A stretch of DNA of 64,000 bases, from contig JBKQQP010000016.1 in NCBI GenBank assembly GCA_052144335.1, positions 894 to 64,893 on the forward strand, read 5' to 3'. The DNA comes from Syntrophales bacterium (GTDB lineage Bacteria; Desulfobacterota; Syntrophia; Syntrophales; UBA2185). A program made the position numbers and the translations under genes. Below are positions 3,090-19,252 of this stretch, in pieces (position 1 is the stretch's first letter; every line of letters begins with the position of its first letter). The notes under the pieces are model-generated. The model had not been told where the DNA came from and made no database searches. It was given only the letters and a program-made list of their open reading frames with translations.

Positions 3090-3956
3090 CTAGTCTCCGA
3101 TCCAGCTTGTGATGTATTCGCAAAGGGTGTCCGGCTTTTCGATCTCTGGCTCCTTAATGTTCCACTTGCCTTTCAAGCCAAGTTCGCCCGCAGTGAGTTC
3201 AAAGTGGCACATGGCGATGCCCATATCCAACCGCTGCAAATCAGCTATATTTAAAAGCCTGAAGGTAAAGCTCTTGCCGTACCCCTTGGTACGCTGCATA
3301 TAGAAGTGCCACGAATTACCGTCTTTGAAAATTCTCCAGGGTTGCTTGTTTGAAGCGGAAGGCGCTATCCGCACCATTTCCAGCGGCGCTGCATAAGGAC
3401 CCGCTTCATTAGGTGAGAGAGGAATGCCAAACTTCTCCCGGAAGAAAAGATTATCCCATGGTTTCCTGTTGTGTCCTCCCACAATCTGGCGGATCGTAAC
3501 CCCCTCTTGCTCCTTCTTCAAAATATATCCGACAGAAGCTACGGCAGGCACAAGTTCGTTAGCAGTCGCAGAAATCTTTTTTGCAAAGCTGCTCCTGGTG
3601 AAACTGCCTCCCAGCCAGCAAGTGCCGAGCCCCATGTCCGTCGCAAAGAGAATTACGCGCTCCATCATGCAGCCAAAGTCTTCCAGGTTCTTTGAAGAAG
3701 GTCCCGCGGCGCCCACGATGAATCCCGATGCGCCCTTGATAAAGCCGTATGTGCCCAGTCCCTTCAGGGCCTTTCCATCCTGGTGTGTCGCTGCTATGAG
3801 TTTAAAGCGCACTGCCGCGCCGAATGGCCCTCTGCCGATTGCGGACAGGAAATCGGACAGGCGCTCCCCGTCTTCCTCCGCGATGGGCTTGTCAATATAT
3901 GTCCGGCAGGAAAAGCGTTTCCGAATGATCTCTGTTACGGGTTTACTGTAAAGCAT
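3090..3956 (-). CDS. nitroreductase family protein (two-domain, TM1586-like)
   Basis: IRKRFSCRTY, GLGTCWLGG, RIAPSASNKQPWR, DMGIAMCHF motifs. Confidence 0.9.
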   Translation of the reverse strand: MLYSKPVTEIIRKRFSCRTYIDKPIAEEDGERLSDFLSAIGRGPFGAAVRFKLIAATHQDGKALKGLGTYGFIKGASGFIVGAAGPSSKNLEDFGCMMERVILFATDMGLGTCWLGGSFTRSSFAKKISATANELVPAVASVGYILKKEQEGVTIRQIVGGHNRKPWDNLFFREKFGIPLSPNEAGPYAAPLEMVRIAPSASNKQPWRIFKDGNSWHFYMQRTKGYGKSFTFRLLNIADLQRLDMGIAMCHFELTAGELGLKGKWNIKEPEIEKPDTLCEYITSWIGD

Positions 3957-3980
3957 AATTAATTTCCATTCAACAGTACA

Positions 3981-5111
3981 CTACATGCGGGACGCGGGCT
4001 CGCGCGCCGGCACAGTTACGAACATGCCGCCGACGCATAAGGCCGCAGCGAAAAGCATAACGCCGCGGTACCCCCAACCATGGGCAATGAGACCGCCGAG
4101 CAGCGGACCCACGGCATTACACAAATTAAGGGTGGACTGGAATATGCCCCCGGCAGTGCCCTTTTCTTTTCCGGCGCGCAATACGATCAACAGGGCGCCG
4201 ACATAGAGGCATGACCAAGCCACTCCCAGGATCACCTGCACTATAACCAGGGCAAACCGGCTTGTGAAAAAAGCATATGCTAAAAACACGAAAACTGAAA
4301 GTACCTGACCCCAGAAGAAAGTCTTGAATTCGGAAAACCTCTCGAGCTGTCGCATTACTAAAAATTGCATGGCATAATTAATTCCCCAGAGAAGACCGAC
4401 CCAAAAATGATCGAGGCCTATGGAGACCAGATACAACGGGAAAATTACCCAGACGGCGCTCGCCCCCAGATGACGGAGGAATACAGCAAAGTAAACCTTA
4501 TAGTCGCGACGCATGACAAGCCACAGATTGGGAGGTTTGGAGAATTTATACGTAGGCATCTTTTGAAAGGCCAGGGAGATGAAAAAAGCCAGTAGGCAAA
4601 ACAGAAAACTGAGCCAGAAAAGAAGTTCAATGTCGCCAACCATTGCTGCCGCGGCAGCGCCGAAAATCCATCCCAGGGACCCGTAGGAGCTGTATTTCCC
4701 CATATTGGCGCCGCATTCGAAGGCGTATGTGAGCGTTGCTGCAACGGCAATGCCAAGTGCAAAGCCTACTGCCGCCCGAACGACAATCAATGCCGTGACA
4801 CTGTGCGCGAGGAGCTGGGCGACGAAAGCCACACTGCTTGTCAGAAGCCCCCACCGCACAAACAGAAGCCTTCCCAAGTGGTCGGACTTCCAGCCCGAAA
4901 TGAGAGAAGAAAACAAGAACGCGACCCCATAGGCTGCACCCACAATGCCGACTTCAAAGTCGGACGCCCCCAATTCCACGCCGAGAAGGGGAACAAAGAT
5001 AAATGAGCTCATCGTGGCGAAACTGAGAAAAAAATTAACGAGGCTTATGAGCCAACGGTAGGACTCGCCTCCCGGCTGATCTACCTTCTCTATAATATCT
5101 TGTTCAAGCAT
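3981..5111 (-). CDS. major facilitator superfamily transporter
   Basis: About 12 hydrophobic segments; motif-A-like GWKSDHLGR; GPLLGGLIA in the C-terminal half. Confidence 0.9.
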   Translation of the reverse strand: MLEQDIIEKVDQPGGESYRWLISLVNFFLSFATMSSFIFVPLLGVELGASDFEVGIVGAAYGVAFLFSSLISGWKSDHLGRLLFVRWGLLTSSVAFVAQLLAHSVTALIVVRAAVGFALGIAVAATLTYAFECGANMGKYSSYGSLGWIFGAAAAAMVGDIELLFWLSFLFCLLAFFISLAFQKMPTYKFSKPPNLWLVMRRDYKVYFAVFLRHLGASAVWVIFPLYLVSIGLDHFWVGLLWGINYAMQFLVMRQLERFSEFKTFFWGQVLSVFVFLAYAFFTSRFALVIVQVILGVAWSCLYVGALLIVLRAGKEKGTAGGIFQSTLNLCNAVGPLLGGLIAHGWGYRGVMLFAAALCVGGMFVTVPAREPASRM

Positions 5112-5164: not shown

Positions 5165-5189
5165 AAAAACCCCGGAAGGGCCTCCAGGG
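5165..5189 (-). terminator. Rho-independent terminator of the kor-hdr operon
   Basis: On the minus strand CCCUGGAG-GCCC-UUCCGGGG followed by UUUUU, about 90 nt after the hdrA-mvhD stop. Confidence 0.7.
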
Positions 5190-5278
5190 CTCATTTTCTT
5201 AATTTGCCGGGAATATATTATTTAATGCATAGCTCTCGCATCCTTTTTGTCCTAGTTGCGATCCCGTTTTGAAATTAA

Positions 5279-7735
5279 TTAACGATCGTTTGCAGCGGCC
5301 GATGCCTTGCTTTTCGAGCGGGTCTTTTGCTCCTTCACGATGCGCATCGTTTCGGCGATCTCCTTGGGAGTGACACTCTTCCTGATCTTTTCCATCTTCT
5401 CCATGACCGCTTGAAAGCGCAGTCCTTCCGCCGCGCTTATCCACTCCAGGCCCAGCCTTTCGGTGCGGAGTCCCATCTTTTCCATCTTCTTCCAAATGCG
5501 CTTGATACGCCGCTCCGTCCACTGATTGGCGTTCATGTAGTGGCAGTCGCCGATGTGACATCCCGACACCAGCACTGCGGGCGCTCCTTTGGCAAAGGCG
5601 CGCCAGATGAACTTCTCGTGCACTCTACCGGAGCACATGGTCCGGATCAGGCGGGTGTTGGGTGGGTAGTGAAGCCTCGACACACCGGCAAAATCGGCGC
5701 CTGCATAGGAGCACCAGTTGCATGCAAAGACGGGTATCCTCTCCGCGGCATTCCCTTCGAGTACGGCATCGATCTGAGCCTCGATCTGCGCGTCTGTAAA
5801 ATGGTTCATCGTAATGGCCATGGCGGGACATTCGGCCGCGCATGTGCCGCAGCCCGAACAGGCCGCTTCGGTAACTTCCGCTGCCGTCTTCGCCTTTGCG
5901 TCCACGCTGATGGCATTGTACGGGCACACCTTCGCACACAGGCCGCACGAGTTGCATAGATCGGGATCAACTGCCGCTGTGATCGCCGCCACGGTGAGCG
6001 AACCGGGATTCATGAGGCGCATGGCCCGGGCAGTCGCTGCGGAGGCCTGGGTGACGGAGTCTTTTATGTCCTTGGGACCTTCGGCGCAGCCGGCAAAGAA
6101 TATCCCCCGTGTCGCTGAATCCACCGGCTGCAACTTCGGGTGGGCCTCCAGATAGAAGCCGTCCGATGTTGTCTGGAGGGCCAGCATCTCCTGAATAGCC
6201 TTCATGTCTGCCGGAGGTTCGAGGCCTACGGCGAGTACAACCATTTCCGTGTGGTGTCTCTCCAACTCATTTGTCGCCGTGTTTTCCACTGTCAGCACGA
6301 GATCCCGCGTTCGAGGGTCCTGCTCAATGTCACCGGGGAGGCCACGGATGTAACGGACACCCATACCCTTACTGCGTCGGAAGAGATCCTCAAACCCCTT
6401 GCCGAAGGCCCGGATGTCAATATAGAACACCTTCACCTCCATGTCCGGATAGTGTTCTTTGAGCATGATCGTGCTCTTCACAGTGTTCATGCAGCAGATA
6501 TTCGAGCAGTAGGTCCGGCCCCGGCGCTGGGATCGGGAGCCCACGCATTGGACAAAAGCGACGGACTTGGGAACCTTGCTGTCCGTAAGGCGGATGACCT
6601 TGCCGCCCGTGGGCCCGCCGGCATTGATGAGCCGCTCGAGCTCCATGCTTGTCAGGACATTCTCATAACGTGTGTAGCCATACTCGTCAAGAATAGTCGG
6701 GTCATAGGCCTCCAGGCCGGTGGCTACGATGATTGTACCGACGTCGAATTCCAACTCCTCGTCGTTCATGTCAAAGTCGATGCAGCGCTTCTTGCATTTC
6801 TCGATGCACTTTCCGCAGATGATGGGATTGTGGCCCAGGCAGCGGGTGATATCCACGGCGTATGCCCCCGGCACTGCCTGCGGAAAAGGCGAGTAGATGG
6901 CCCGTCGGGTGCTCAGTCCCATGTTGAACTCATCGGGAATGATGACCGGGCAGACGTCAACGCAGTCACCGCATGCCGTGCACTCCTTCTCCTTCACGTA
7001 CCTCGCCCTCTTCAGGATGCGCACATGAAAGTTGCCCACGAATCCCCTGATCTCTTTTACCTCACTCATCGTTAAAAGTGTAATGTTGGGATGCCGACCG
7101 GCATCCGTCATCTTGGGCCCGAGTATTCAGATGGAACAGTCCATGGTGGGAAATGTCTTGTCGAGCCGTGCCATGATGCCGCCGATGCTCGGCTGCTTCT
7201 CCACGAGTATCACCTTGTAGCCAGAGTCCGCAAGATCAAGCGCGGCCTGTATCCCCGCCACGCCGCCGCCTATAACCAAGGTGGAGGGTGCCACCGGGAC
7301 ATCCATTTCCGTCTGTGCGGCAAGCAGGCGGACCCTTGATACAGCGGAGCGCACCAAGTCCCTCGCTTTAATAGTAGCATTCTTGGCATCATGGCTGTGC
7401 ACCCATGAACATTGCTCCCGGATGTTCGCCATCTCCATAAGGTAAGGGTTCAGCCCGGCTTCACTGACACACTGTCTGAACGTAGCCTCATGAAGCCGCG
7501 GTGAGCACGAGGCCACCACTACACGGTTGAGTCCGAATTCCTTTATGTCACTCTTAATCTGGTTCTGACCCGGTTCTGAGCACGTGTATCCCTGGTGCCG
7601 GCATATCACGACGTCCGCGAGCTTGCCCGCATATGCAGCTACTGCATCGCAATCGACAACGCCTGCGATATTCGATCCACACTGGCAGACATAGACGCCT
7701 ATTCTGACTGTGTTATCCTGTTTTGATTCTTCCAT
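5279..7735 (-). CDS. hdrA: selenocysteine-containing heterodisulfide reductase subunit A fused to a C-terminal MvhD domain (818 aa with UGA read-through)
   Basis: ORFs 7127..7735 and 5279..7111 are in frame, joined by [20 protein letters not shown] (HdrA DCxxC motif). GGGVAG FAD motif, QCVGSR...CSNICC, inserted and C-terminal ferredoxin motifs, MvhD motifs [25 protein letters not shown]. Confidence 0.92.
7089..7106 (-). promoter_or_regulatory. bacterial SECIS-like hairpin
   Basis: mRNA GGAUGCC-GGUC-GGCAUCC; 27 nt separate the in-frame UGA from the loop; the GGUC loop resembles the E. coli fdhF SECIS loop. Confidence 0.85.
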
Positions 7736-7764
7736 TAATCATCCTCTTGATTCAAACCTCTGTA

Positions 7765-8919
7765 CTAAGCGATCTGGTCGGCCAGAACGGAGACCAGATC
7801 CCGTATTTCCATTTGTATCTTTTTCCCCTGCATCAATGGATCGCGTATGGTGCAGGTGAGATGGATCATACATTTGGGACACGCCGTAACGAGCATGTCC
7901 GCGCCCGTTACACGCGCCTCCTCAAGCCTCTGCACCTGAATCTGCTTTGAGGAGGCATCACAATTGATGAAGCCGCAGTTGCCGCAGCACAACGCCCCTT
8001 TGCCCGAGTGTTCCATTTCCCGGAGCTCCATTTCCGGTATGAGGCCGAGCAACTCCCTCGGTCCAGAATAGCGGTTCAGCATGCGTCCAAGCCTGCACGG
8101 ATCCTGAAAAGTGACTTTGCGCTTAAGCGGCCGGAAGGCCGTACTGCCGGGCTGCATTTCCCGTTGGAGGAGGTCGATCAGCAAAGTTACTCTGACGTCA
8201 AATCCCGGGATGATGCGCGGCATGTGTTCACTCAAGACCTGAAAACATTCAGGGCACGAGACGATGAGCTCCTTCACCCCGGCGTCCTTGAAGGATGCGT
8301 AGTTCAGCCGGCAGAGCGCTTCAAAATTTTCGATATCTCCGGACCAGAGCAGGTCGTGTCCGCAGCACTTTTCATTGGGTAGGAGAACCGGCTTGATGTC
8401 CAGGAAGTTGAGCAGCCGTATGCTGTCTCTGGCTATAGACAGCGTATCTACATCGATGCCGGCAAAGAAGACATTGAAATAGGGCGCGCACCCGGTAAAA
8501 AATGCGACTTCTCCTGACGAAGCGACTTTAATGCCTGGATCGAGCCAGTCGAGGCGGTTCTGCTTGAGGCGCGGAGCGGTCATCATCCTCATCCAGGAAT
8601 GGATGGCGCCGTCGTGGGCGCGGTAGCCCTTCAAGCCTTTAGTTTCAGCCAGCAGTGTGCGCATTTCCAGGATGAAACGATTGAAGTCCACGCCCGACGG
8701 GCAGCGTTCACGGCATACGCCGCAAGTCAGGCATTCCCATACCGAATTTTCGATATAGGCATCATCCTCGCGCTCGGAGATCACTTTGTGCACCAATAAT
8801 CTGGGGGAGTATTCCTTTCCTGATAGCTTTCGCGGGCACGAAGCTGTACACTTGCCGCACTCCAGGCACTGATACAGTGACATATCTATGATCATCTGAT
8901 CGATCTTTGGATCGTTCAA
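7765..8919 (-). CDS. HdrD-like Fe-S oxidoreductase (2x[4Fe-4S] plus two CCG domains)
   Basis: CLECGKCTASCP, CLTCGVCRERCP, FFTGC...CCG...CPEC, QDPC...CCG...CPKC; probable TTG start at 8919 overlapping the mvhD TGA, behind GGAGG. Confidence 0.9.
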   Translation of the reverse strand: MNDPKIDQMIIDMSLYQCLECGKCTASCPRKLSGKEYSPRLLVHKVISEREDDAYIENSVWECLTCGVCRERCPSGVDFNRFILEMRTLLAETKGLKGYRAHDGAIHSWMRMMTAPRLKQNRLDWLDPGIKVASSGEVAFFTGCAPYFNVFFAGIDVDTLSIARDSIRLLNFLDIKPVLLPNEKCCGHDLLWSGDIENFEALCRLNYASFKDAGVKELIVSCPECFQVLSEHMPRIIPGFDVRVTLLIDLLQREMQPGSTAFRPLKRKVTFQDPCRLGRMLNRYSGPRELLGLIPEMELREMEHSGKGALCCGNCGFINCDASSKQIQVQRLEEARVTGADMLVTACPKCMIHLTCTIRDPLMQGKKIQMEIRDLVSVLADQIA

Positions 8920-9347
8920 CTCTTCAACTCCTCCAGTTTGCGGCCGCTCTTCGACATAAGGGGACCCAGAGCCCCTACCTCTTCCGTGAAATTCCACAAA
9001 GTCCGAACCAGCTCTTCTTTTTCATGGGCGCCGAAGGTGCGCTCCACCAGCCGTTTCTGGCGTATGCCGAGAAGGTGAAGTATCCTGCGGACGCGGTGCA
9101 CATTTTCATGGCCCACCTCAGGCCCCGGGCCATAGCGGCAATCCTCGTCCGTGCATTCCAGGAGTATTACGCCGTCTGCGCCAAACTCAAAGGCCCTCAG
9201 GATCAGCGCCTGATTGATGCGTCCGATGCACATCACCCGTATCAGGTGAAAGTTCGCAGGCATGTTCATCCCCGTCATCCCCGCTGCGTTGTAGCAGGCA
9301 AAAGGGCTCCAGTTGCAGCATATGCCCAGGATGCGGACAGGTTCCAT
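8916..9347 (-). CDS. mvhD: MvhD/FlpD-family [2Fe-2S] protein (atypical N-terminal Cys motif)
   Basis: IRVMCIGRI, AFEFGADGVILLEC...DCRYGPG; N-terminal motif is CCNWSPFAC. Confidence 0.85.
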   Translation of the reverse strand: MEPVRILGICCNWSPFACYNAAGMTGMNMPANFHLIRVMCIGRINQALILRAFEFGADGVILLECTDEDCRYGPGPEVGHENVHRVRRILHLLGIRQKRLVERTFGAHEKEELVRTLWNFTEEVGALGPLMSKSGRKLEELKS

Positions 9348-9348
9348 A

Positions 9349-12300
9349 TCACAACTCCCTGACCAGTGCGCCCGCGACGATCTCTTCAAGGAGACGATTG
9401 GTAAAGTAGGGCATGTCCATGGCAGTCACCGGACAGCGACCCACACAGCCGCCGCACCCGACACAATTGTAGCGCAACACTTCCGCCGTATAAAAGCCGC
9501 GCTCATTGGCGACAAGCCTGACGGCGTCAAAAGGACATATCTCCACGCAACGGCCGCAGCCGCGGCATCGCTTCCTGTCCACCTTGGGACTGAGCTCATG
9601 GTCTTTCAAAAAGGCCTCTGCCGCGGTAGTTGCCACGTGTGCAGCCAGGGCAGCACCCGCCTGGAAAGCAGTCACTCTCTTGAGCGTCCTGGGCATTACC
9701 CGGTAGACGCCGATCTGGGGGCTGTGAAAAAATTTAAAGTTGTAGCGATAAAATTTCTTGAGGCCGAACATCCCCACGGGAATTGCCAGAGGGAGGACAT
9801 TCATATCGGCAAGACACACTATGTCCGCATGGAAATTCTTGCGGACGCCATTCTCACGCACCGCCACCGTAAAATCACCCAAGTGTCCCTTGATTCCTTC
9901 GATGAGAGCTTCCTTTACGTGCGTGATAGAAGCCCCGGCGATCATGCTGACAGGTCTTTTGCGGATCTCCGCGGGCACTTTCTGGTCATCCTTGAGACTG
10001 CAACGATGGACCAGACGCACCTTGAATCCCTGCATGTTCAAATTGAGGGCGGTGCTCAGACCCAGTTCCGAACCACCCAGAATCAGTATCCGATTTCCAA
10101 TCTTGGTTGTGCTCTGGCGGAGCGGCCCCATGACCCGGGCGCGAATGAAGGCCTCCCTGAAAAAATTACGCATTCTTTCAACAAGCATCTCTTCTGATGC
10201 GTCCGGAGAGCCAAGGTGATCCCTGATGTTGATTGTCTCAAACCGGCAGCGGTCAAGGCGGTGCCTCTCAAAGAGCAGGATGCGGGCACGGTTTCTCTGA
10301 TCGTTGCAGGAAATGCACTGAAACTCCAGGGGACAGCATACGCAGGAGGCCAGAATGACCCTCCCCAGCTTGTGCTCCCGCACGGCAGCGGCAATCTGGT
10401 CGGCGCCCCCTGGATGGCAGGCAGAAAAAATCAGCTCACTGTGCATCACGCCGGGCATCTTCAGCGCCATATCCCGGATGCGCTCAAGCGCGCCGGGTGT
10501 TGCCAGGGTTCCGTTGCACGTGCAGGTGAATACTCCGAACCGCACTTCTTCTTCAGAAGCGATTGGGACTGGCTGGCAGGGGATACTGTTGGTCCGGAGG
10601 GAGGAGCACTCGGCCATGGCTTGGCCCGCCGAGGCGCTCCCGGCTATTAATACATTCACGAGGTCCGTAGCGCTCCGGAAATCTCCCACGCGGTAGACGC
10701 GTTCTCCATTGGCTAAATCCAAGTGCGCAATCTCTTCATCGCTCGCCACAATTACGGCAGGACTGGAAACAGTCATGAGCTCCCTGTTCTTGAAATGATT
10801 GATGGCCCCTATATCCTTGCAGACGCTTTCGCAGAGGCGGCACTCGCAGCAGGAGCTGCAGTGAAGACAGCGTGCAGCTTCAGCCACTGTCTGCTCCTCG
10901 GTCAGTCCCAGCTCCACTTCTTTAAAATCCCGCCGCCTCTCCGTCGCCTGTCTTCTCGACATTTCCGGCCGGGATTTTCGGGGAGTGTCCTCGGATATTT
11001 CCAGATGTTCCCCGGCGCCGCGAGATTCGTCAGGCAGCACACCCCACGAGGGGCCGGTCCCCGTGAGATATTCGACAGCCTGCGCTGCGGCCCGGCGGCC
11101 CTGGGACATGGAGCCTACCACCGTATCCGGTCCTGTAACCGCATCCCCGGCGGCAAAAACGCCTGCCTGCGACGCCGAGAGACGCGCGTCCACATTGATC
11201 GTCCCCGACCGGCCCGTAATCAGCTCTTTTCCGAGCCCCGTTCCCACCAGAGACGGCTGTTGTCCAATGCCAATAATTACAGTATCCGCCGGCCGGAATA
11301 ACTCTGAACCTTTGACCGGTTCCGGCCTTCGTCGTCCGCTCTCATCAACGGCGCCCTGCTTCATGCTAATCATGTCAAGTCCGGTCACTCTTCCTCTTCG
11401 GGAAATGATCCGGGCCGGCGCCACGAGGTATTCAATCTTTACCCCTTCCTCCTGCGCCCTCCGTATCTCCGATCCGTGCGCCGGCATATCGCCCCTCGTT
11501 CTGCGGTAGCATATGGTGACTGATTTCGCTCCCAGCCGGATGGCAGACCGGGCCGCATCAATGGCCGAATTGCCACCGCCGATGACAACCACATTGCCCC
11601 GGATATTCGGCTTGCCACCGGTGTTGAGCTCTTTCAGCATCTCGAGCGCCCCATACATTCCCTTGGCATCTTCACCGGGAATATTGAGGCGGAGGTCCCG
11701 GTGGGCCCCGGTGCACAGGAGAACAGCATGAAAACCCTGATCAATTAGATCTTTGATGGAGCGGATCGGTGTCCCGGTACGCATCTCTACGCCGGCATCG
11801 GCGATGGCCTGTATCTCTGCGTCGAGGACCTCACGGGGAAGTCTGAAGGCGTTGATTCCCATCCGCAGTATTCCTCCCGCTTCACGATGGGCCTCAAATA
11901 CCGTGACGCTGAAACCCTCCCGATTGAGGAAATATGCCGCCGCAAGGCCGGCGGGACCGCCGCCCACTATGGCCACTCTTTCAGGCCTTGGCAGTTTTTG
12001 GGCGCCGGGCAGCCGCGGTCTGCGCTTGGCCATTTCCCTGTCGGCAAGAAAACGTTTTACGCTGCATATCGCCACCGCCTGGTCCAGCGAACGCCGTCTG
12101 CAGGCTTCCTCGCAGGGGTGGTGACAGACTCGCCCGCATATGCCCGGCAGGGGATTATCCTGCCTTATCATGTCAAGGGCCTCGTCAAACCGCGAGGCAG
12201 CAGTCAGCGCCATATATGCATGGACATTAACACCCAGGGGACAGCTAATTCTACATGGAGAAGGTTTGCGCTTATCCAGATCAAGGGCCCGGGAAGGGCA

Positions 12301-12720
12301 GTAGGCCGGTGTCCTGCGCAGGGGGGGATGGCTCGAATTCTGAAGCGGACAAATCTCCATGCAGCGCCCGCATCCGGTGCAGAGGTCGTAGTTTACATAT
12401 ACGGGGTCTTGTGTAATGACGGCCCGATAGCCGTCGGGACCACGCTTGATGGCCTCGATGCGCGCATGGGTTAAGGCGGTAACCAGCGGATGACGCGTTA
12501 CCTGCAGGTACAGCGGGCGGAACTGGAAATCCAGATCTTCAGGGTAATCGGTAAAGGGAGCGGCTCCCTCGGGATGCTCCAGGAAGTGAATCGCTTTCGT
12601 GACCCAGACCAGGGGCAGGCCGGATTGCGAGAGGTCCTGCGCTACCTTCAAGGCGCCGTAACCGGAGCCTACGAGTAGAACGGCTTTTTTCAGGCTGCTG
12701 GTTGAGGAACTCCTATACAT
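9349..12720 (-). CDS. large HdrL-like flavoprotein: GltD/NfnB-type NAD(P)H module embedded in degenerate HdrA scaffolds, with ferredoxin domains
   Basis: CRISCP...CGRVCHHPCEEAC, VGGGPAG, IGGGNSAIDAAR, YRR, FAAGDAVTGP; HdrA-like FTCTCNG/RVILASC/ETINIRD; terminal CRGCGRCVEICP and CVGCGGCVGRCP. Confidence 0.85.
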   Translation of the reverse strand: MYRSSSTSSLKKAVLLVGSGYGALKVAQDLSQSGLPLVWVTKAIHFLEHPEGAAPFTDYPEDLDFQFRPLYLQVTRHPLVTALTHARIEAIKRGPDGYRAVITQDPVYVNYDLCTGCGRCMEICPLQNSSHPPLRRTPAYCPSRALDLDKRKPSPCRISCPLGVNVHAYMALTAASRFDEALDMIRQDNPLPGICGRVCHHPCEEACRRRSLDQAVAICSVKRFLADREMAKRRPRLPGAQKLPRPERVAIVGGGPAGLAAAYFLNREGFSVTVFEAHREAGGILRMGINAFRLPREVLDAEIQAIADAGVEMRTGTPIRSIKDLIDQGFHAVLLCTGAHRDLRLNIPGEDAKGMYGALEMLKELNTGGKPNIRGNVVVIGGGNSAIDAARSAIRLGAKSVTICYRRTRGDMPAHGSEIRRAQEEGVKIEYLVAPARIISRRGRVTGLDMISMKQGAVDESGRRRPEPVKGSELFRPADTVIIGIGQQPSLVGTGLGKELITGRSGTINVDARLSASQAGVFAAGDAVTGPDTVVGSMSQGRRAAAQAVEYLTGTGPSWGVLPDESRGAGEHLEISEDTPRKSRPEMSRRQATERRRDFKEVELGLTEEQTVAEAARCLHCSSCCECRLCESVCKDIGAINHFKNRELMTVSSPAVIVASDEEIAHLDLANGERVYRVGDFRSATDLVNVLIAGSASAGQAMAECSSLRTNSIPCQPVPIASEEEVRFGVFTCTCNGTLATPGALERIRDMALKMPGVMHSELIFSACHPGGADQIAAAVREHKLGRVILASCVCCPLEFQCISCNDQRNRARILLFERHRLDRCRFETINIRDHLGSPDASEEMLVERMRNFFREAFIRARVMGPLRQSTTKIGNRILILGGSELGLSTALNLNMQGFKVRLVHRCSLKDDQKVPAEIRKRPVSMIAGASITHVKEALIEGIKGHLGDFTVAVRENGVRKNFHADIVCLADMNVLPLAIPVGMFGLKKFYRYNFKFFHSPQIGVYRVMPRTLKRVTAFQAGAALAAHVATTAAEAFLKDHELSPKVDRKRCRGCGRCVEICPFDAVRLVANERGFYTAEVLRYNCVGCGGCVGRCPVTAMDMPYFTNRLLEEIVAGALVREL

Positions 12721-12722
12721 CG

Positions 12723-13304
12723 CTAATCCCTTGGCAACCTGCCCTGTTTTGCCCGGCTCTTGAGGGTAGCCTTGCCGTATTCAGCGCCCCGTTCGAAGGC
12801 CCGCACATTTATTTCCCGCGTGGGCGCCGGTACTGATGTCAGCACGGCTTTGCGCAAAGCCTCTGCGCTCACTAATTCATATATGGCGGCAAGAAATCCG
12901 AGCATGACGATGTTCGCCATCATTCTATTGCCCAAATCTTCGGCGAAGTGGGTCGCTGGTATATTGTATGTGGTTACGTCTGGACGAATTTTTTTTACCT
13001 GCACAAGATCCGCTTCCAGAATCAGGATGCCGCCGTCACGCAGACTGCCTATATTCTTGGCATAACCTTCCTGGCTGAGACAGATCAGGACATGCGGTTC
13101 CTTTATATAGGGGAAAAGGACTTCCTCGTCGCTGATAATAATCTGGGCGGAGCAGGAGCCGCCCCGGGCCTCCGGTCCGTAGGCCTGCGTCATGGTGGCA
13201 AATTTTCCATCGTAAAGGGTGGCTGCCGTTCCGAGGATATCGCCGGCCATGATGACCCCCTGTCCGCCGAAGCCCGTTATGAGAATGTATCTTTCCTTAT
13301 TCAT
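12723..13304 (-). CDS. korC: 2-oxoacid:ferredoxin oxidoreductase gamma subunit
   Basis: GFGGQGV, YGPEARGG, NIVMLG motifs. Confidence 0.92.
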   Translation of the reverse strand: MNKERYILITGFGGQGVIMAGDILGTAATLYDGKFATMTQAYGPEARGGSCSAQIIISDEEVLFPYIKEPHVLICLSQEGYAKNIGSLRDGGILILEADLVQVKKIRPDVTTYNIPATHFAEDLGNRMMANIVMLGFLAAIYELVSAEALRKAVLTSVPAPTREINVRAFERGAEYGKATLKSRAKQGRLPRD

Positions 13305-13314
13305 GTGTTATAGC

Positions 13315-14211
13315 TCATTGCCCTGCCTGATTTTCGGGCACGATCGCGCCTTCAAAATCCGGCCAGTCCCCGATCAGATTCTTGCAGCTCAACTGATAGT
13401 TATCCATAAACGTCGACCGTTCCGTGTCAACAAATTTCCCCACGACTATATTGTTGCGGAAGTCTATGGGAGCCTCTTTCGGATCGATGTCGTTGCGAAT
13501 AAGGCAACGCTCATGATAGAACTTCAGAGTCTCCAGGGCAGTGCCTATCTTGTTACGGCGCCCGAAGGAGGTGGGACAGGGAGTCAGGACCTCGACGAAT
13601 CCGAAACCGCGCTTCTGCATTGCCTCAGTAATGGAGTTTGTGAGTCTCCGTATATGCAAAGATGTCCAGCGTGCGACGTAAACCGCCCCACATGCAGAGG
13701 CCAGATAACAGAAATTGAACGGTTCCTCCGGACAGCCCGTGACGCTTGTGGTAGTCTTAGCCCCGAAAGGAGTGCTCGGAGCGAGTTGCCCGCCGGTCAT
13801 CCCATAGTTCAAGTTGTTCACGCAGATGACCGTGATGTCAATGTTCCGCCGGGCCGCATGGATGAAATGATTGCCCCCTATAGCAAGCAAGTCACCGTCA
13901 CCGGAGACGACGAGCACCTTTAGCTCCGGATTCGCGAGCTTCAAGCCGGTGGCGAATGGCAGGGCGCGGCCGTGTGTTGTGTGAAAGGAATCCAGCTGGA
14001 TATATCCGGCCATCCGCGCGGTGCAGCCGATACCGGAGACTATGGCAGTCTTGTCCAGGTCGTAGCCTGATTTCTGAATGGCGGCAATCACGGACGCGAA
14101 AACAGTGCCGATGCCGCACCCGGCACACCATATATGGGGAAGCCGCTCACTCCGGACCAATCCTTCCATGGGATGTTCGGGCACAGTCTTTTCTGCTTTT
14201 TTCGTCTTCAT
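13315..14211 (-). CDS. korB: 2-oxoacid:ferredoxin oxidoreductase beta (TPP-binding) subunit
   Basis: WCAGCG, SGIGC, HTTHGR, GDGD...NN TPP motif, YGMTGGQ, PCPT. Confidence 0.95.
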   Translation of the reverse strand: MKTKKAEKTVPEHPMEGLVRSERLPHIWCAGCGIGTVFASVIAAIQKSGYDLDKTAIVSGIGCTARMAGYIQLDSFHTTHGRALPFATGLKLANPELKVLVVSGDGDLLAIGGNHFIHAARRNIDITVICVNNLNYGMTGGQLAPSTPFGAKTTTSVTGCPEEPFNFCYLASACGAVYVARWTSLHIRRLTNSITEAMQKRGFGFVEVLTPCPTSFGRRNKIGTALETLKFYHERCLIRNDIDPKEAPIDFRNNIVVGKFVDTERSTFMDNYQLSCKNLIGDWPDFEGAIVPENQAGQ

Positions 14212-15368
14212 TTCTTTCCCTTTATAGAGTCTTCAATGGCGCTCAAGATGGTTGCAGGATGGATTATGGAACCGCCCATGTGGGACACCAGATGAACGGG
14301 ACACGCGCCTCCGGCGCACCGCTGCAACTCAAGCACCATCTGGCCCGCATTAATTTCCGGCATAATTAGGGCGCGCACCCGGCCGGCGACGTCTCTTATA
14401 AGTGTTTCCGGAAACGGCCATACCGTCTCCAGTTTGATAAGTCCCGTGCGTATCCCTCTGCTTCGTGCATCTCGTACGGCTTGTCTTGCGGACCGCGCAC
14501 TGATCCCGTAGGCAACTACAACGACGTCAGCGTCATCGAGACAAACGTTTTCCGTCCGGATGATACTGTCCCTGTTGTTTACGATTTTCGCGATCAGGCG
14601 ATTGACCATCTGCGCCTGAGTCTTCTCGTCCATTCCCGGATAGCCACGCTCATCATGCGTGAGACCTGTGATATGAATCCTGTAGCCGTCACCGCAGTTG
14701 GCCATGGGGGCGACCCCGTCCGCATCCGGATGATAGGGTAGATAATCGCTTGGAGATGCCTTGGGTTTCCGCCTGCCGACAAGCTCGATTTCTTCTTTCC
14801 GGGGAATGACGACACGCTCGTTCATGTGACCGACTACCTCGTCCGCCATGATCATGACGGGTATACGGTACTGCTCGCTGAGGTTGAACGCACGGACAGT
14901 TAGGTTAAACATCTCCTGGGGACTGGATGGGGCAAGCGCGATGACCTCGTAATGGCCATGCGACCCCCAGCGGGCCTGCATCATATCTCCCTGGCCGACA
15001 AGTGTCGGGAGCCCCGTAGAAGGCCCAGCCCTCTGCACGTTACAGATCACACAGGGTGTCTCCGTACAGATTCCGAGACCGATATTCTCCATCATCAGGG
15101 AGAAGCCCGGACCGGACGTGCTGGTCATGGCCTTCACTCCTCCCCAGCTTGCACCCAGAATAGCCGACATGGATGCGATCTCATCTTCCATTTGAATATA
15201 TGTGCCGCCCAACTCCGGCAGCCTGCGTGACATACGTTCGCCAATCTCCGTTGCGGGGGTGATCGGATACCCTGCGAAGAATCGGCAGCCCGCAGCCAGA
15301 GCGCCCTCACAGCAGGCATAGTCGCCGTTCATGAAGTAGGTGCCCGTCAATACGGCCTTGTCAGCCAT
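14208..15368 (-). CDS. korA: 2-oxoacid:ferredoxin oxidoreductase alpha subunit (KorA-like)
   Basis: GYPITPATE, QMEDE, TSGPGFSLM, RAGPSTGLPT; start at ATG 15368 behind GAGGTG. Confidence 0.95.
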   Translation of the reverse strand: MADKAVLTGTYFMNGDYACCEGALAAGCRFFAGYPITPATEIGERMSRRLPELGGTYIQMEDEIASMSAILGASWGGVKAMTSTSGPGFSLMMENIGLGICTETPCVICNVQRAGPSTGLPTLVGQGDMMQARWGSHGHYEVIALAPSSPQEMFNLTVRAFNLSEQYRIPVMIMADEVVGHMNERVVIPRKEEIELVGRRKPKASPSDYLPYHPDADGVAPMANCGDGYRIHITGLTHDERGYPGMDEKTQAQMVNRLIAKIVNNRDSIIRTENVCLDDADVVVVAYGISARSARQAVRDARSRGIRTGLIKLETVWPFPETLIRDVAGRVRALIMPEINAGQMVLELQRCAGGACPVHLVSHMGGSIIHPATILSAIEDSIKGKK

Positions 15369-15427
15369 GCACCTCACCTCGTATAATAAATATTTCTACG
15401 TATAATGACATGCAGCAAGTTCTTTCT

Positions 15428-15730
15428 CTATTTGTTCTTCCTTCGAGACCTAGTGGTCTTGCCTTGCGCTGCTTCAGTTGCCTCTATTGAATATATTGCA
15501 AAGTCCGGACACAGGGCCTCGCAGAAATGGCAGTTGACGCATTTTGACTCGTCTACTACTGCCGGCGTATGATAGCCTTTTGCATTAAATGTCTGAGACA
15601 TGACAAGCACATCACGCGGACAGTATGCGACACAGAATTCGCACCCTTTGCATCGATCCTCAACAATGATGACCTTACCTCTGCTCGCCCTGATGCTCTC
15701 CAGATCGAGGGGTTTTCTCCAGTATTTCAT
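15428..15730 (-). CDS. korD: 2-oxoacid:ferredoxin oxidoreductase delta subunit (2x[4Fe-4S] ferredoxin)
   Basis: CKGCEFCVAYCP and CVNCHFCEALCPDFAI. Confidence 0.9.
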   Translation of the reverse strand: MKYWRKPLDLESIRASRGKVIIVEDRCKGCEFCVAYCPRDVLVMSQTFNAKGYHTPAVVDESKCVNCHFCEALCPDFAIYSIEATEAAQGKTTRSRRKNK

Positions 15731-15786
15731 GCGGCAACGCCTTTCTTCGGTTTCATGCCTTCACGGATTTGACAAACAAAGGAATT

Positions 15787-15815
15787 TGTATATGAGAAAT
15801 GCATGCATATGTCAA
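15787..15815 (-). promoter_or_regulatory. putative sigma70 promoter of the kor-hdr operon with a palindromic operator in the spacer
   Basis: Minus strand TTGACA-N17-TATACA; perfect palindrome ATGCATGCAT (15799-15808) inside the spacer. Confidence 0.5.
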
Positions 15816-16067
15816 TAGCCCATGTGCGCTTCAACTCTATGCTGCATATCCAGAAGATCCCGATACGCAAACGGAAGGCTTGTTAAGTCACTCCGCGAGC
15901 GAAAAAGATACAGGCATAACAACCTATGCCCGCGCTGAGCAGGAGATGTATTTTTCGTCATTTTCTGATATAATTACCGATAATGCCTACGATGAAAATC
16001 TTGAGCATAGCAGATTACTTTAATCAATTCTCTCAATGAGTTAACGCGCGTCAAGGAAAGGAGGGCA

Positions 16068-17501
16068 ATGATGGATACATATGACATTTGCATTGGAGGC
16101 ACATTTCACAAAACAGACAAGATTCTGAAAGTCGCCAATCCGTTTAACAATGAGGTCTTTGCTAATACATATTTGGGCCATGAAGCCGATCTGGAAGAAG
16201 CCATCTTAAAGGCTCAGTCGGCGGAAAATGTGATGAAGGGACTGAGCTCTTTCGAGCGATTTGATATTCTTAGGTATATTGCCGATACCCTTATCCAGAG
16301 GAAAGACCGTTTATCAAGGGTACTTGCCCAGGAGTCGGGAAAACCTCTCATATATGCAGGCGCCGAAATTGACCGCTCCAGTCAAACTTTCCTCATCGCG
16401 GCGGAAGAATCTAAGAGGCTTCCCCGAGAATATTTGAGCCTTGACTGGACTGCTGGCGGTAAAGACAAGGAAGGGCTCGTAAAGTATTTTCCCGTGGGCC
16501 TCGTGGCAGGCATCTCTCCTTTCAACTTCCCGATGAATCTGGCGGCCCACAAGATCGCACCGGCTATAGCAACGGGTTGTCCGATCATAGTGAAACCGGC
16601 ATCGGCAACGCCGCTTTCCACACTGGAACTCGCAAAAATCATCGACGAGACTTCCTTGCCGAAGGGAGCGCTGTCCATTGTCCCGATGGATCGAACGACC
16701 GGAATGAAGCTTGTGACAGATGAGAGGTTTAAGCTTCTCACATTCACTGGTTCGCCGGAGGTGGGATGGAGAATGAAGAAAGAAGCGGGCAAGAAAAAAG
16801 TAGTCCTCGAACTTGGCGGGAATGCTGGCGTCATTGTATGCGGAAGCGCCGATATCGACTTTGCCGTGAAAAGATGCATTTTTGGCGGTTTTGCCTACTC
16901 GGGGCAGATCTGCATCCATGCCCAGAGGATCTTTGTGGAGAGAAGGATTTTTGACGAGTTTCTGGAGAAATTCGCAGTGAGTGCACAGAACTTAAGGTTC
17001 GGTGATCCTCTCAAACCAGAAACACAGATCTCTGTCATGATTGATGAGCCGAATGCGAAACGAGTCGCAGACTGGGTGAGAGAGGCAACAAACGGTGGTG
17101 CAAAGACTGTCTGCGGCGGGAACAGGGAAGGTGCATTTTGTGAGCCAACGGTGCTCACAAACACGAAGAGATCGATGAAGGTCAATTGTCTCGAGGTTTT
17201 CGGGCCTGTGGTTACCATAGAACCCTATACAACCATAGAAGAGGCAGTCCGTATGGTAAATGATACGAACTTCGGATTACAGGCGGGAATCTTTACTCAT
17301 AACATGAACGAAATAAACTATGCGTTTATAAACCTGGAAGTCGGAGGCATCATTGTCAATGACGTTCCCACATTCCGCGTGGATCACATGCCGTATGGAG
17401 GTATAAAAGATTCAGGTTTGGGAAGGGAAGGCCTCAAATATGCCATCCTCGATATGATGGAGCCGAAGATACTGGTTACTGATACGCGTCAACACAAATG
17501 A
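16068..17501 (+). CDS. NAD(P)-dependent aldehyde dehydrogenase
   Basis: PFNFP, KPA, FTGS, LELGGN, catalytic GQICI, EVFGP, PYGGIKDSGLGREG. Confidence 0.95.
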   Translation: MMDTYDICIGGTFHKTDKILKVANPFNNEVFANTYLGHEADLEEAILKAQSAENVMKGLSSFERFDILRYIADTLIQRKDRLSRVLAQESGKPLIYAGAEIDRSSQTFLIAAEESKRLPREYLSLDWTAGGKDKEGLVKYFPVGLVAGISPFNFPMNLAAHKIAPAIATGCPIIVKPASATPLSTLELAKIIDETSLPKGALSIVPMDRTTGMKLVTDERFKLLTFTGSPEVGWRMKKEAGKKKVVLELGGNAGVIVCGSADIDFAVKRCIFGGFAYSGQICIHAQRIFVERRIFDEFLEKFAVSAQNLRFGDPLKPETQISVMIDEPNAKRVADWVREATNGGAKTVCGGNREGAFCEPTVLTNTKRSMKVNCLEVFGPVVTIEPYTTIEEAVRMVNDTNFGLQAGIFTHNMNEINYAFINLEVGGIIVNDVPTFRVDHMPYGGIKDSGLGREGLKYAILDMMEPKILVTDTRQHK

Positions 17502-17660: not shown

Positions 17661-18002
17661 TTACCCTATGGCCTTGCCGCCGCGTTCGCCCGTACGGATG
17701 CGGATAACCTCGTAGAGGTCCATTACAAATATCTTCCCGTCTCCTATCTCACCCGTCCGCGCCCCCTTGATGATCGCCTGTATCGTAGGCTCCACAAAAT
17801 CCTCGTTGCACGCTATCTCTAGCTTTATCTTCTTCAACAGGCTCCCTACTTCCTTCGCTCCCCGGTAAACCTCGGTTAGACCCTTCTGTCTGCCGCGTCC
17901 AAGTACGTTAGATACGGTCACTAGGTTTACCTCCACATCCTCGAGGGTCTTCATCACTTCGTCCAGTTTGTGGGGCTGTATTATTGCGACTATATATTTC
18001 AT
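17661..18002 (-). CDS. glnK: P-II nitrogen regulatory protein
   Basis: [30 protein letters not shown]; directly downstream of amt. Confidence 0.95.
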
Positions 18003-18016
18003 GTTCGTAAACCTCC

Positions 18017-19252
18017 TTATTCTACAACGGTGTAGGCGGCTTCACTCTGCTGGGTAAGATCAAGGCCGATGATTTCATCCTTCTTTTCTACCCTGATGCC
18101 TACTAATGCATCCACAAATTTGAAGAGTATCCAGGTCATTACAGCCGCAAATACAGGTGCCACAACAATGAGCAGCAGCTGAACCAGAAACTGATGAACA
18201 TCCCCGAAGAACAGGCCATTCCCACCGGCTTCGTTCACGACCTTCTCGGCAAACAGACCAGTTGCGATCGTCCCCCACATCCCGCCGACGCCGTGGACGC
18301 CGAAAACATCGAGGGCGTCATCATATTTGAATAGCACCTTCACCTTGGCAATGGCAATGTAGCAGAAGACACTTACGAGAATACCGATGAATATGGCGTT
18401 CATAGGACTCACAAATCCGCAGGCCGGCGTAATTGCGACAAGGCCTGCAACGGCGCCTGTCGCCGCCCCCAGGACAGTCGGAGCGCCGTGCTGCTGCCAT
18501 TCAATAAGCGCCCAGGTCAATCCCGCCGCAGCCGTTGCCGTGTTGGTCGTGATAAAGGCATTTGCCGCCAGTTCGTTTGCCGCCAGGGCGCTCCCGGCGT
18601 TGAATCCAAACCAGCCGAACCACAGGAGGGCTGCCCCCAAAACGGTAAATGGAAGGTTATGCGGCCGGAAGGGCTGCTCCTGATAGCCGATCCTTTTACC
18701 GATAAGCAGCGCCATCACCAGCGCCGATACACCGGAACTGGTATGGACGACAATGCCGCCCGCGAAATCGAGGGCGCCAAGGTTCTTCAGCCAGCCGCCC
18801 GTTCCCCAGACCCAGTGGCCTAAGGGATCGTAGACAAAGGTCGCCCAGAGAATCGTAAAAAGCAGGAAGGCGGAAAACTTGATCCGCTCCGCAAAGGCGC
18901 CTACAATCAATGCAGGCGTGATGACGGCGAACATGCACTGAAAAATCATGAAAACGCTGTGGGGAATCGTCGCGGCATAATCAGGATTCGGCTGCCCCCC
19001 TACGCCTCTCAATCCCACCCAGTCGAAGCCGCCGATGATACCATGACCCGTATCTGGACCGAACGTCAAAGAGTATCCATATAAGATCCACTGCAAGCTG
19101 ATGACGCACAATATGATGAAGCACTGCATCAACAGGGAAAGAACATTTTTCCGCCGCACCAGGCCGCCGTAAAAGAAGGCCAGTGCGGGCACCGTCATAA
19201 GCAACACCAACGCCGATGATGCCAATACCCATGCTGTATCGCCTGAATTCAT
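18017..19252 (-). CDS. amtB: ammonium transporter
   Basis: [56 protein letters not shown]. Confidence 0.97.

Follow-up and report, generated by a model that had tools for sequence, protein, structure and literature searches.

Electron bifurcation by HdrA takes place at an FAD and sends electrons down two branches, one of low potential to ferredoxin and one of high potential to HdrBC, with MvhD as the adaptor of the input module. The known partners of HdrA bifurcation are hydrogenase, formate dehydrogenase, F420H2, Flx with NADH, MetFV and the benzoyl-CoA reductase module. NfnB-type modules allow NAD(P)H to exchange electrons with a flavin and a pair of [4Fe-4S] clusters. 2-Oxoacid:ferredoxin oxidoreductases (OFORs) interconvert 2-oxoacid plus CoA and acyl-CoA plus CO2, at about -500 mV, via thiamine pyrophosphate (TPP) and [4Fe-4S] clusters, and use a delta subunit as a ferredoxin-like exit. 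Here we describe eight open reading frames (ORFs), korD, korA, korB, korC, hdrL-prime, mvhD, hdrD and a selenocysteine (Sec)-containing hdrA(Sec)-mvhD fusion, in which the genes of an OFOR run directly into those of an Hdr/Nfn-type module. They occupy positions 5279-15730 (-) of a 64,000-nucleotide stretch (the window; C16:894-64893, contig JBKQQP010000016.1) of a Syntrophales bacterium genome (GCA_052144335.1; 3.98 Mb, 94 contigs), whose closest public relatives are metagenome-assembled genomes (MAGs) titled Syntrophales or Syntrophaceae bacterium, sampled from peat and fen. We propose, with about an even chance of being right, that the products form one soluble complex in which flavin-based bifurcation would reversibly tie together 2-oxoacid/acyl-CoA+CO2, NAD(P)H and, at HdrD, an acceptor of high potential. 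The parts come from known families; what appears to be new within the Hdr-type bifurcation family is an OFOR as the catalytic partner and a short form of HdrL.

The class II benzoyl-CoA reductase provides a precedent for this module logic, as in it a module of the HdrA type is connected by direct wiring to the low-potential catalytic module (10.64898/2026.04.10.717634; here and below, comparisons with cited reports refer to the portions of their text available to us). In Bam[(BC)2DEFGHI]2 of Geobacter metallireducens, a fused HdrA dimer comprises one catalytic and one structural unit, the low-potential branch is wired directly into the catalytic subunit, the HdrD-like outlet feeds an electron-transferring flavoprotein (ETF) and not a disulfide, and the MvhD-like adaptor contains Sec (10.64898/2026.04.10.717634). 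The locus described here likewise has two HdrA-like units of which one is complete, an MvhD-like adaptor, Sec near the flavin chemistry, an HdrD-like high-potential outlet and an NAD(P)H-linked input. In the reading proposed above, low-potential electrons would also pass straight into the catalytic module, without free ferredoxin. Unlike Bam, its catalytic module is a TPP/Fe-S 2-oxoacid oxidoreductase and not the tungsten enzyme BamB; its NAD(P)H module is of the NfnB/GltD kind and lies within HdrL-prime, whereas that of Bam is the NuoEFG-like BamGHI; and its two HdrA-like units are carried on two proteins (HdrA and the truncated HdrL-prime). Further, Sec resides in HdrA (CxxU) and not in the MvhD-like subunit, and HdrD has all its CCG cysteines, whereas most BamD homologues have a disrupted distal cluster. 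Pfam detected no AOR-family (BamB) domain in the operon, and the resemblance, drawn by analogy, is one of mechanism, not of membership.

Three further groups share individual features with the locus. HdrL/MvhD of Desulfobacterium autotrophicum (PMC2702500) and HdrA9-11 of ANME-1 (PMC9012536) have, like HdrL-prime, an inserted ferredoxin domain interrupted by an NfnB/GltD-like module, and mvhD as the next gene; some members are selenoproteins. Unlike them, HdrL-prime has kor genes upstream and is followed by hdrD and a separate, complete hdrA. Methanogen Mvh/Fdh-HdrABC-Fmd/Fwd assemblies (PMC13518236; 5odc, 7bkb, 8rvu and 9sw6 are among the structure entries matched by the proteins of the locus) also combine HdrA, MvhD and an HdrBC-type disulfide reductase, and channel low-potential electrons through ferredoxin-like domains to a CO2-fixing enzyme. 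They differ in that their donor is H2 or formate, where the putative donor here is NAD(P)H, and in that their low-potential enzyme is formylmethanofuran dehydrogenase and not an OFOR; here HdrB and HdrC are fused as HdrD, in a bacterial host without a CoM/CoB context. HdrA2B2C2 of Methanosarcina acetivorans (PMC5296606) has a C-terminally fused MvhD on its HdrA, as does the fusion protein described here, in which Sec is present and the F420H2 donor and separate HdrB2/HdrC2 are replaced by HdrL-prime and HdrD.

Full-text literature searches retrieved no description of a kor + Hdr/HdrL-prime cluster, in line with the expectation of an earlier note on this DNA that the architecture had not been characterised, and an earlier passing mention is possible. 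In the available passages of PMC2702500, PMC9012536, PMC5861303, PMC6085437, PMC5296606, PMC9723716, PMC5736913, PMC13685792, PMC5606693, bioRxiv 10.1101/2024.09.26.615249 and the class II benzoyl-CoA reductase preprint 10.64898/2026.04.10.717634, no OFOR appears as the partner of an Hdr module. Nor do the main-text passages of PMC2702500 or PMC9012536 mention an OFOR as a neighbour of HdrL or HdrA-NfnB fusions.

The first four genes encode together the alpha, beta, gamma and delta subunits of a Kor/Oor-type 2-oxoacid:ferredoxin oxidoreductase (Table 1), recognised with Pfam and by KorA exceeding the cut-off of NF006412, '2-oxoacid:acceptor oxidoreductase subunit alpha' (574.5 bits, cut-off 411). 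This generic model is the only NCBIfam model that KorA passes. KorB scores 253.5 bits against NF007207, below its cut-off of 364, and KorC 199 bits against NF006323, below 235; the models nearest to KorD, OGOR_delta and OorD, also remain below cut-off. Models specific for 2-oxoglutarate are the nearest (NF007206, 387.8 against a cut-off of 579; NF007207, as above; OGOR_delta, 64 against 125), all below cut-off, and KorD homologues are named '2-oxoglutarate ferredoxin oxidoreductase subunit delta' in the database, an annotation only. A second, conventional korDABC set lies on contig C25 of the host genome; its KorA is 51-52% identical.

Table 1. Features of the kor-hdr locus, in order of transcription (window coordinates).
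Feature	Position	Strand	Description	Basis
Putative sigma-70 promoter	15787..15815	-	TTGACA (15815-15810), 17 nt, TATACA (15792-15787)	Read directly from sequence
korD	15428..15730	-	Delta subunit, 100 aa, two [4Fe-4S] motifs, N-terminus MKYWRKPLD	Pfam Fer4 and Fer4_7
korA	14208..15377	-	Alpha subunit, 389 aa from GTG 15377 or 386 aa from ATG 15368	Pfam POR_N and PFOR_II
korB	13315..14211	-	TPP-binding beta subunit, 4-nt overlap with korA	TPP_enzyme_C
korC	12723..13304	-	Gamma subunit	PF01558 POR
hdrL-prime	9349..12720	-	1123 aa, NfnB/HdrA fusion	Fer4_20, Pyr_redox_2 and HdrA-like pieces
HdrL-prime, part 1	residues 13-126		Start of HdrA TrxR domain and first half of inserted ferredoxin, without CxxC/U motif	
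HdrL-prime, part 2	residues 150-650		NfnB/GltD-like FAD, NAD(P)H and 2[4Fe-4S] module	
HdrL-prime, part 3	residues 611-634		Second ferredoxin Cys motif	
HdrL-prime, part 4	residues 723-906		HdrA N-terminal domain and degenerate Rossmann start	
HdrL-prime, part 5	residues 1043-1119		HdrA C-terminal 2[4Fe-4S] ferredoxin domain	
mvhD	8916..9347	-	143 aa, free-standing [2Fe-2S] adaptor, starts 1 nt past hdrL-prime stop	PF02662 FlpD, E 6e-33
hdrD	7765..8997	-	Soluble, HdrC-like 2x[4Fe-4S] fused to HdrB-like 2x CCG	Fer4_8 and two CCG stretches
hdrA(Sec)-mvhD	5279..7735	-	Fusion, 818 aa, U203 in DCSIU motif	Translation with TGA=U
In-frame UGA read as Sec	7127..7129	-	DCSI-U-ILG	TGA in 28/28 readable orthologues
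SECIS-like hairpin	7090..7105	-	GAUGCC-GGUC-GGCAUC, begins 21 nt past UGA	RNA fold
Intrinsic-terminator-like hairpin	5167..5192	-	11 pairs and T-run, 87 nt past hdrA stop	Terminator scan

The gene order is conserved well beyond close relatives. Scanning one genome per species with HdrL-prime gave 77 loci, in 33 of which the protein is at least 53% identical; kor genes lie directly upstream in all 31 of those 33 that have upstream DNA. Together with L040 and five loci sampled in two further families within the order (L115-L119), these make up 39 loci with short HdrL-prime. All eight genes occur in the same order in 25 of these; 13 are cut at contig ends, which fall exactly where genes go missing, and one (L021) lacks hdrA. 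The order holds even in L115-L119, the most divergent of these loci, where identities are 31-36% for HdrL-prime, 38-40% for MvhD, 41-43% for HdrD and 59-62% for KorA. The synteny check that the earlier note had proposed came out in its favour, with 25 of 39 loci complete and the order holding down to 31% HdrL-prime identity. Looser versions occur in records titled as Zixibacteria (L053: korDABC, long Sec-HdrL, mvhD, hdrD, hdrA), in Anaerolineae of the Chloroflexota (L040 and L062: korDABC and HdrL-prime, then the contig end) and in Thermoanaerobaculia of the Acidobacteriota (L083: korDABC, an NfnB-like gene, a small ferredoxin/MvhD-like gene, hdrD). That two adjoining operons without a functional link have come together by chance or shared ancestry is extremely improbable: amid changing flanks, the order survives in several phyla and where HdrL-prime is no more than 31-36% identical, and junctions within the cluster are 1-2 nt long or overlap. 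Among the 27 loci with four kor genes and HdrL-prime, the best-shared flanking family (aldehyde dehydrogenase) is found in only seven, an MFS transporter in six, a nitroreductase-like gene in six and amtB/glnK in four.

The module has been seen only together with Kor, whereas Kor also exists without the module. In an order-wide sample of 301 genomes, 75 carry a KorA orthologue (threshold E <= 1e-140); short HdrL-prime occurs in about 30, and most others have the long type only. In one sister family (f15), KorA at 74-80% identity is present in 43 of 78 genomes, and short HdrL-prime was not found there. Of 27 kor loci sampled in this and a second sister family (f13), 26 consist of korDABC alone; the downstream stretches covered, 1.7 to 10 kb long, contain no hdr genes. 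It follows that Kor is able to function on its own, presumably by way of free ferredoxin. This distribution lends some weight to a functional rather than physical unit, in which HdrA(Sec)-MvhD, HdrL-prime, MvhD and HdrD would form a separate NAD(P)H:ferredoxin:acceptor bifurcating enzyme, its acceptor being a disulfide or something else, and Kor would be co-expressed on the same ferredoxin pool. Pairs of long HdrL and MvhD are, moreover, widespread without kor (an HdrL-like match occurs in 275 of the 301 genomes, mostly of the ~1480-aa type), and HdrA2-type enzymes use free ferredoxin (PMC5296606, in the portions available). We consider such a unit a real possibility, but a distinctly less probable one than a single complex. 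It fails to explain why kor lies directly upstream of short HdrL-prime in 31 of 31 loci, the operon has no ferredoxin gene that Pfam could detect, and it leaves unaccounted for a sequence signature in KorD that tracks the linkage.

This signature is the N-terminal motif M-x-[Y/F/H]-W-R-x-P-[L/I/F]-D, present in KorD of all 36 HdrL-linked clusters, including those of Zixibacteria, Anaerolineae and Thermoanaerobaculia. With any residue at its eighth position (M-x-[Y/F/H]-W-R-x-P-x-D), it is absent from KorD of 26 of the 27 sampled kor loci in the sister families, where stand-alone KorD proteins begin with MQK-x-KKY-x-I (f15) or a different sequence (f13). Among the best 120 of 708 KorD homologues from a collection of 5.8 billion proteins, all 120 have the motif, 117 by the pattern and three with L-W-R. 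We take the signature as a hint, and the most specific pointer available, that KorD may touch something from the module. One f15 genome has a KorD with the N-terminus MKYWRKPLN that is typical of Hdr-linked clusters (L122; G297:C143:4255-6544); its contig of 6.5 kb stops within korB and its korA has an internal TAA, and it could be a second kor copy or contamination of the bin. In a quick maximum-likelihood tree of KorA, seven stand-alone sequences (L108-L114) nest within the linked clade (support 99 for a 19-row clade and 100 for a 35-row clade). The idea of a Kor clade specialised for the module is thus only partly borne out, as stand-alone f15/f13 KorA falls inside the linked clade; consequently, we claim no separate Kor family, only the difference at the KorD N-terminus.

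The NAD(P)H-linked side of the proposed complex is HdrL-prime. Its NfnB-like part is 41% identical over 477 columns to 9bov_A, the NfnB-like subunit of the bifurcating Nfn-ABC. A Foldseek search with the HdrL-prime model recovered this part alone, with matches to StnABC, NfnI, Xfn, GltD and DPD and, normalised to the target, TM values of 0.75-0.76 for 5jca_L and 4ylf_B. Sequence and fold thus agree on an NfnB-type subunit with the FAD/NAD(P)H/2[4Fe-4S] module of NfnAB, Nfn-ABC and StnABC (9bov_A, 8oh5_C, 9n5u_A, 5jca_L). Unlike in those enzymes, the module is embedded in an HdrA-like scaffold, and the operon has no NfnA or HydBC-like partner; Pfam found no domain of the NfnA kind (FAD and [2Fe-2S]) in it.

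HdrL-prime is of the HdrL type, since it resembles HdrA, contains an NfnB/GltD-like NAD(P)H module and has mvhD as the next gene. It is classed as a short variant, as full-length HdrL has about 1480 aa, TrxR cores and CxxC. The long HdrL of L057 (L057:8001-12440; ~1478 aa) consists of two HdrA-like units in tandem, and the NfnB module interrupts the first. HdrL-prime is 355 aa shorter and lacks CxxC and most of both TrxR cores, with no equivalents of residues 664-866 (~200 aa, the first flavin core) and of ~170 aa of the second. Judged from these alignments, it is a doubly truncated tandem HdrA-like scaffold, so that the operon's only complete HdrA-type flavin domain lies in Sec-HdrA. The long HdrL loci (L043-L085, including L057) share the 'fused HdrA dimer' plan that the available text of 10.64898/2026.04.10.717634 describes for BamE.

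An NfnB/GltD-like FAD beside an OFOR could also mean that the enzyme does not bifurcate at all. Electrons would then run from Kor over Fe-S wires to the FAD of HdrL-prime and on to NAD(P)+, leaving HdrA and HdrD to some other task, possibly in regulation or redox repair. Known OFORs that contain an NAD(P) module of their own are the 2-oxoglutarate:NADP+ oxidoreductase of Azoarcus and the pyruvate:NADP+ oxidoreductase of Euglena. In addition, the adjacency of an OFOR and an NfnB/GltD-like gene recurs without Hdr parts in the host genome (C13:45614-49042) and at L074, the HdrL of the reduced L083 cluster is little beyond the NfnB-like part, and PadE/G/I of the NADH-dependent phenylglyoxylate dehydrogenase are among the weaker NCBIfam matches. 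We nevertheless regard this alternative as improbable. A complete Sec-HdrA and an HdrD with every cluster ligand are retained in 25 of the 26 loci long enough to contain them, and the TGA codon of hdrA and the hairpin behind it are under strong constraint, which is hard to square with a dispensable role. The locus at C13:45614-49042 is itself a second adjacency of an OFOR and an NAD(P)H module in the host genome; there, a Por/Vor-like OFOR alpha/beta pair adjoins an NfnB/GltD-like gene whose product is 35% identical to residues 152-647 of HdrL-prime.

HdrA(Sec)-MvhD has the complete domain set of the HdrA2 subtype: N-terminal domain, TrxR/FAD core, inserted and C-terminal ferredoxin domains, and fused MvhD. 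It scores 1217.6 bits against the NCBIfam HdrA2 model NF040770 (cut-off 1100) and has the C-terminal FlpD domain. Residues 11-659 align to residues 5-650 of Methanothermococcus HdrA (5odc_A, E 4e-239) and residues 666-790 to the MvhD of the same structure (5odc_D). The in-frame TGA is found in every orthologue readable at that position, L030 being left out of the count because the stretch is masked by N, and paralogous HdrL and HdrA forms have TGT or TGC (Cys) there. The hairpin that follows, which resembles a selenocysteine insertion sequence (SECIS), keeps all six pairs in 16 of 16 orthologues, and its wobble positions are invariant while flanking wobble positions vary. The host genome encodes tRNA-Sec and SelB (the latter above the family cut-off). 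UGA opposite Cys in homologues, a downstream hairpin and the decoding machinery together mark a bacterial selenoprotein, and Sec in HdrA, which the earlier note had read from the sequence, stands on the conserved TGA, the frozen hairpin, tRNA-Sec and SelB.

HdrD, of the HdrD/HdrB type, carries two complete CXnCCGXmCXXC motifs and an HdrC-like 2x[4Fe-4S] domain. Across 20 orthologues, with identities as low as 39%, every Cys of both CX..CCG..CXXC motifs is invariant or almost invariant, and both ferredoxin-type motifs are kept. Intact CCG sites would allow thiol/disulfide chemistry at HdrD. Start candidates of hdrD are 8895, 8919 and 8997, and the true start is probably 8919 or 8895. No gene for the HdrE (cytochrome b) membrane partner occurs in the operon, and no genome-wide search for HdrE was made. 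As for DsrC as an obligate HdrD partner, the host genome carries dsrA, dsrB and dsrC (C77:7207-11499), with a CCG-domain match nearby (C77:13105-13461). Within the order, dsrA is found in 9 of 10 genomes of its own genus, in 0 of 8 and 0 of 2 genomes of two families with the cluster (f20 and f22), and in 33 of 78 genomes of f15, without the cluster. Since dsrA does not track the cluster across the order, an obligate role for DsrC is out, and DsrC may still serve HdrD in the host's own genus. The host may live by sulfite or sulfate respiration and is not necessarily an obligate syntroph; the earlier note's description of it as a syntroph is thus not established.

In the proposed single complex, the eight genes would form one operon for a soluble multi-subunit oxidoreductase in which KorDABC is wired directly to the Hdr/Nfn-type module, without free ferredoxin. 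The bifurcating FAD would sit in the complete HdrA(Sec)-MvhD, beside the Cys-x-x-Sec pair, and, by analogy with benzoyl-CoA reductase, HdrA(Sec)-MvhD and HdrL-prime-MvhD would make up a heterodimer. HdrL-prime would contribute the NfnB-like FAD/NAD(P)H port, a free MvhD of its own and some 7-8 [4Fe-4S] clusters; HdrD, whose two CCG cluster sites are intact, would be the high-potential outlet or inlet; and KorD, with its clade-specific N-terminus, would be the low-potential port into the TPP enzyme. The predicted net reaction, which would be reversible, is 2-oxoacid + CoA + 2 NAD(P)+ + (1 or 2) reduced high-potential carrier <-> acyl-CoA + CO2 + 2 NAD(P)H + oxidised carrier, where the carrier could be RSH or another HdrD partner. 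Forward, this would be confurcation, with high-potential electrons raised to the level of NAD(P)H and paid for by 2-oxoacid oxidation. In reverse, bifurcation from NAD(P)H would drive reductive carboxylation without a free ferredoxin pool. Further precedent for this logic exists because HdrA matches methanogen HdrA and MvhD over its full length and the middle of HdrL-prime matches the NfnB-like subunits of Nfn-ABC, StnABC and NfnI. What we observe is the order of the genes, their domains, Sec, the conservation and the signature of KorD; complex formation, electron path, stoichiometry, substrate and direction are what we infer from these. The bifurcating OFOR-Hdr complex of the earlier note keeps its gene and domain assignments, Sec, synteny and novelty in the literature, but the disulfide it named as acceptor becomes one option only, because the HdrD-like subunit of benzoyl-CoA reductase passes electrons to ETF (10.64898/2026.04.10.717634, in the portions available).

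Several points weigh against a hard-wired bifurcating complex. The orthologous korDABC of the 26 sister-family loci, with KorA 74-80% identical, stands alone. These loci are essentially one clade and one genome, so that the KorD signature rests on one or two evolutionary events (losses), and its occurrence in the best 120 of 708 KorD homologues comes without gene context. In the KorA tree, linked clusters are over-sampled because the loci were found with an HdrL-prime query. One locus with HdrL-prime at 63% identity (L021) has no hdrA despite 8 kb of downstream DNA. The AF2 model of HdrL-prime (mean pLDDT 65, pTM 0.48) is confident only in the NfnB-like part (residues 240-560) and poor outside it, and the proposed packing of domains therefore has no backing from the model. 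Finally, a 2-oxoacid at about -500 mV reduces ferredoxin without bifurcation, and the energetic rationale hangs on the high-potential partner. A predicted complex of KorB and KorD with residues 100-660 of HdrL-prime scored 0.01, which weighs neither for nor against binding. At L021, 6.4 kb after hdrD (L021:12948-19366) contain no hdrA, and the rest of that genome was not searched for it.

A more specific version, which we put forward as unlikely but worth stating, is an NAD(P)H-driven, hard-wired, ferredoxin-free '2-oxoacid synthase' super-complex. NAD(P)H would be bifurcated on the Hdr/Nfn module; the low-potential electron would enter reductive carboxylation of an acyl-CoA via KorD, docked through WRxPxD, and the high-potential electron would leave via HdrD. 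With NAD(P)H as its donor, such a synthase would be for bacteria what the CO2-fixing Hdr-Fmd assembly is for methanogens.

With the start codons chosen in the earlier note, its gene coordinates and gaps of 59, -4, 10, 2, 1, -4 and 29 nt agree with the ORF list (2 nt between korC and hdrL-prime, 1 nt between hdrL-prime and mvhD), and every domain it named was recovered with Pfam and NCBIfam. The promoter it placed before korD is present as TTGACA-17-TATACA and plausible. A consensus promoter scan did not list the site because the scan demands T as the last -10 base, which is A here. Its terminator, an 11-pair hairpin with a T-run at 5192-5167 (-), was picked up by a terminator scan that lists 16 sites over the window, a modest excess over shuffles (9.9 +/- 3.1). 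Pfam detected no hdrB, hdrC, flx or hydrogenase domains inside the operon, as the earlier note had also stated. Genes for Flx, a hydrogenase or formate dehydrogenase are likewise missing from the eight genes and from those next to them, so that the locus has no Flx, Mvh or Fdh partner. Rfam gave 0 matches on the whole window.

Other features of the neighbourhood appear less closely tied to the cluster. A 10-pair hairpin with a T-run (15910-15933, -) lies between the divergent genes, some 95 nt upstream of the putative promoter of kor, with no minus-strand gene for 1.7 kb upstream of it. A 120-aa ORF (5199-5561, -) overlaps the 3' end of hdrA in another frame and is very probably no gene. Downstream of the terminator (3090-5111, -) lie an MFS transporter gene (3981-5111) and a TM1586-type nitroreductase-like gene (3090-3956), kept there only in six close relatives. 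On the other side, glnK (P-II) and amtB (ammonium transporter; together 17661-19252, -) lie upstream of a divergent aldehyde dehydrogenase gene (16068-17501, +), a neighbourhood common only to the four closest relatives. A link to nitrogen assimilation, suggested by the upstream glnK-amtB and the GltD-like module, is out as a conserved feature, since these neighbours occur in only 4 of 27 loci.

Among uncultured lineages the cluster is common: it was seen in at least 39 species-level genomes, and at least 120 KorD clusters of the protein database have the signature. It is therefore relevant to metabolic models built on MAGs, which at present count kor and hdr separately (an example is Table 2 of PMC13685792, in the part of that report available to us). 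If the proposed complex is real, a TPP-dependent 2-oxoacid oxidoreductase would be a new class of partner for HdrA bifurcation. A reaction of central carbon metabolism, acyl-CoA + CO2 <-> 2-oxoacid (about -500 mV), would then be tied directly to the NAD(P)H pool. Energy-limited anaerobes of peat, sediments and groundwater would thereby make 2-oxoglutarate or pyruvate without a low-potential ferredoxin pool, or gain a soluble form of reverse electron transfer.

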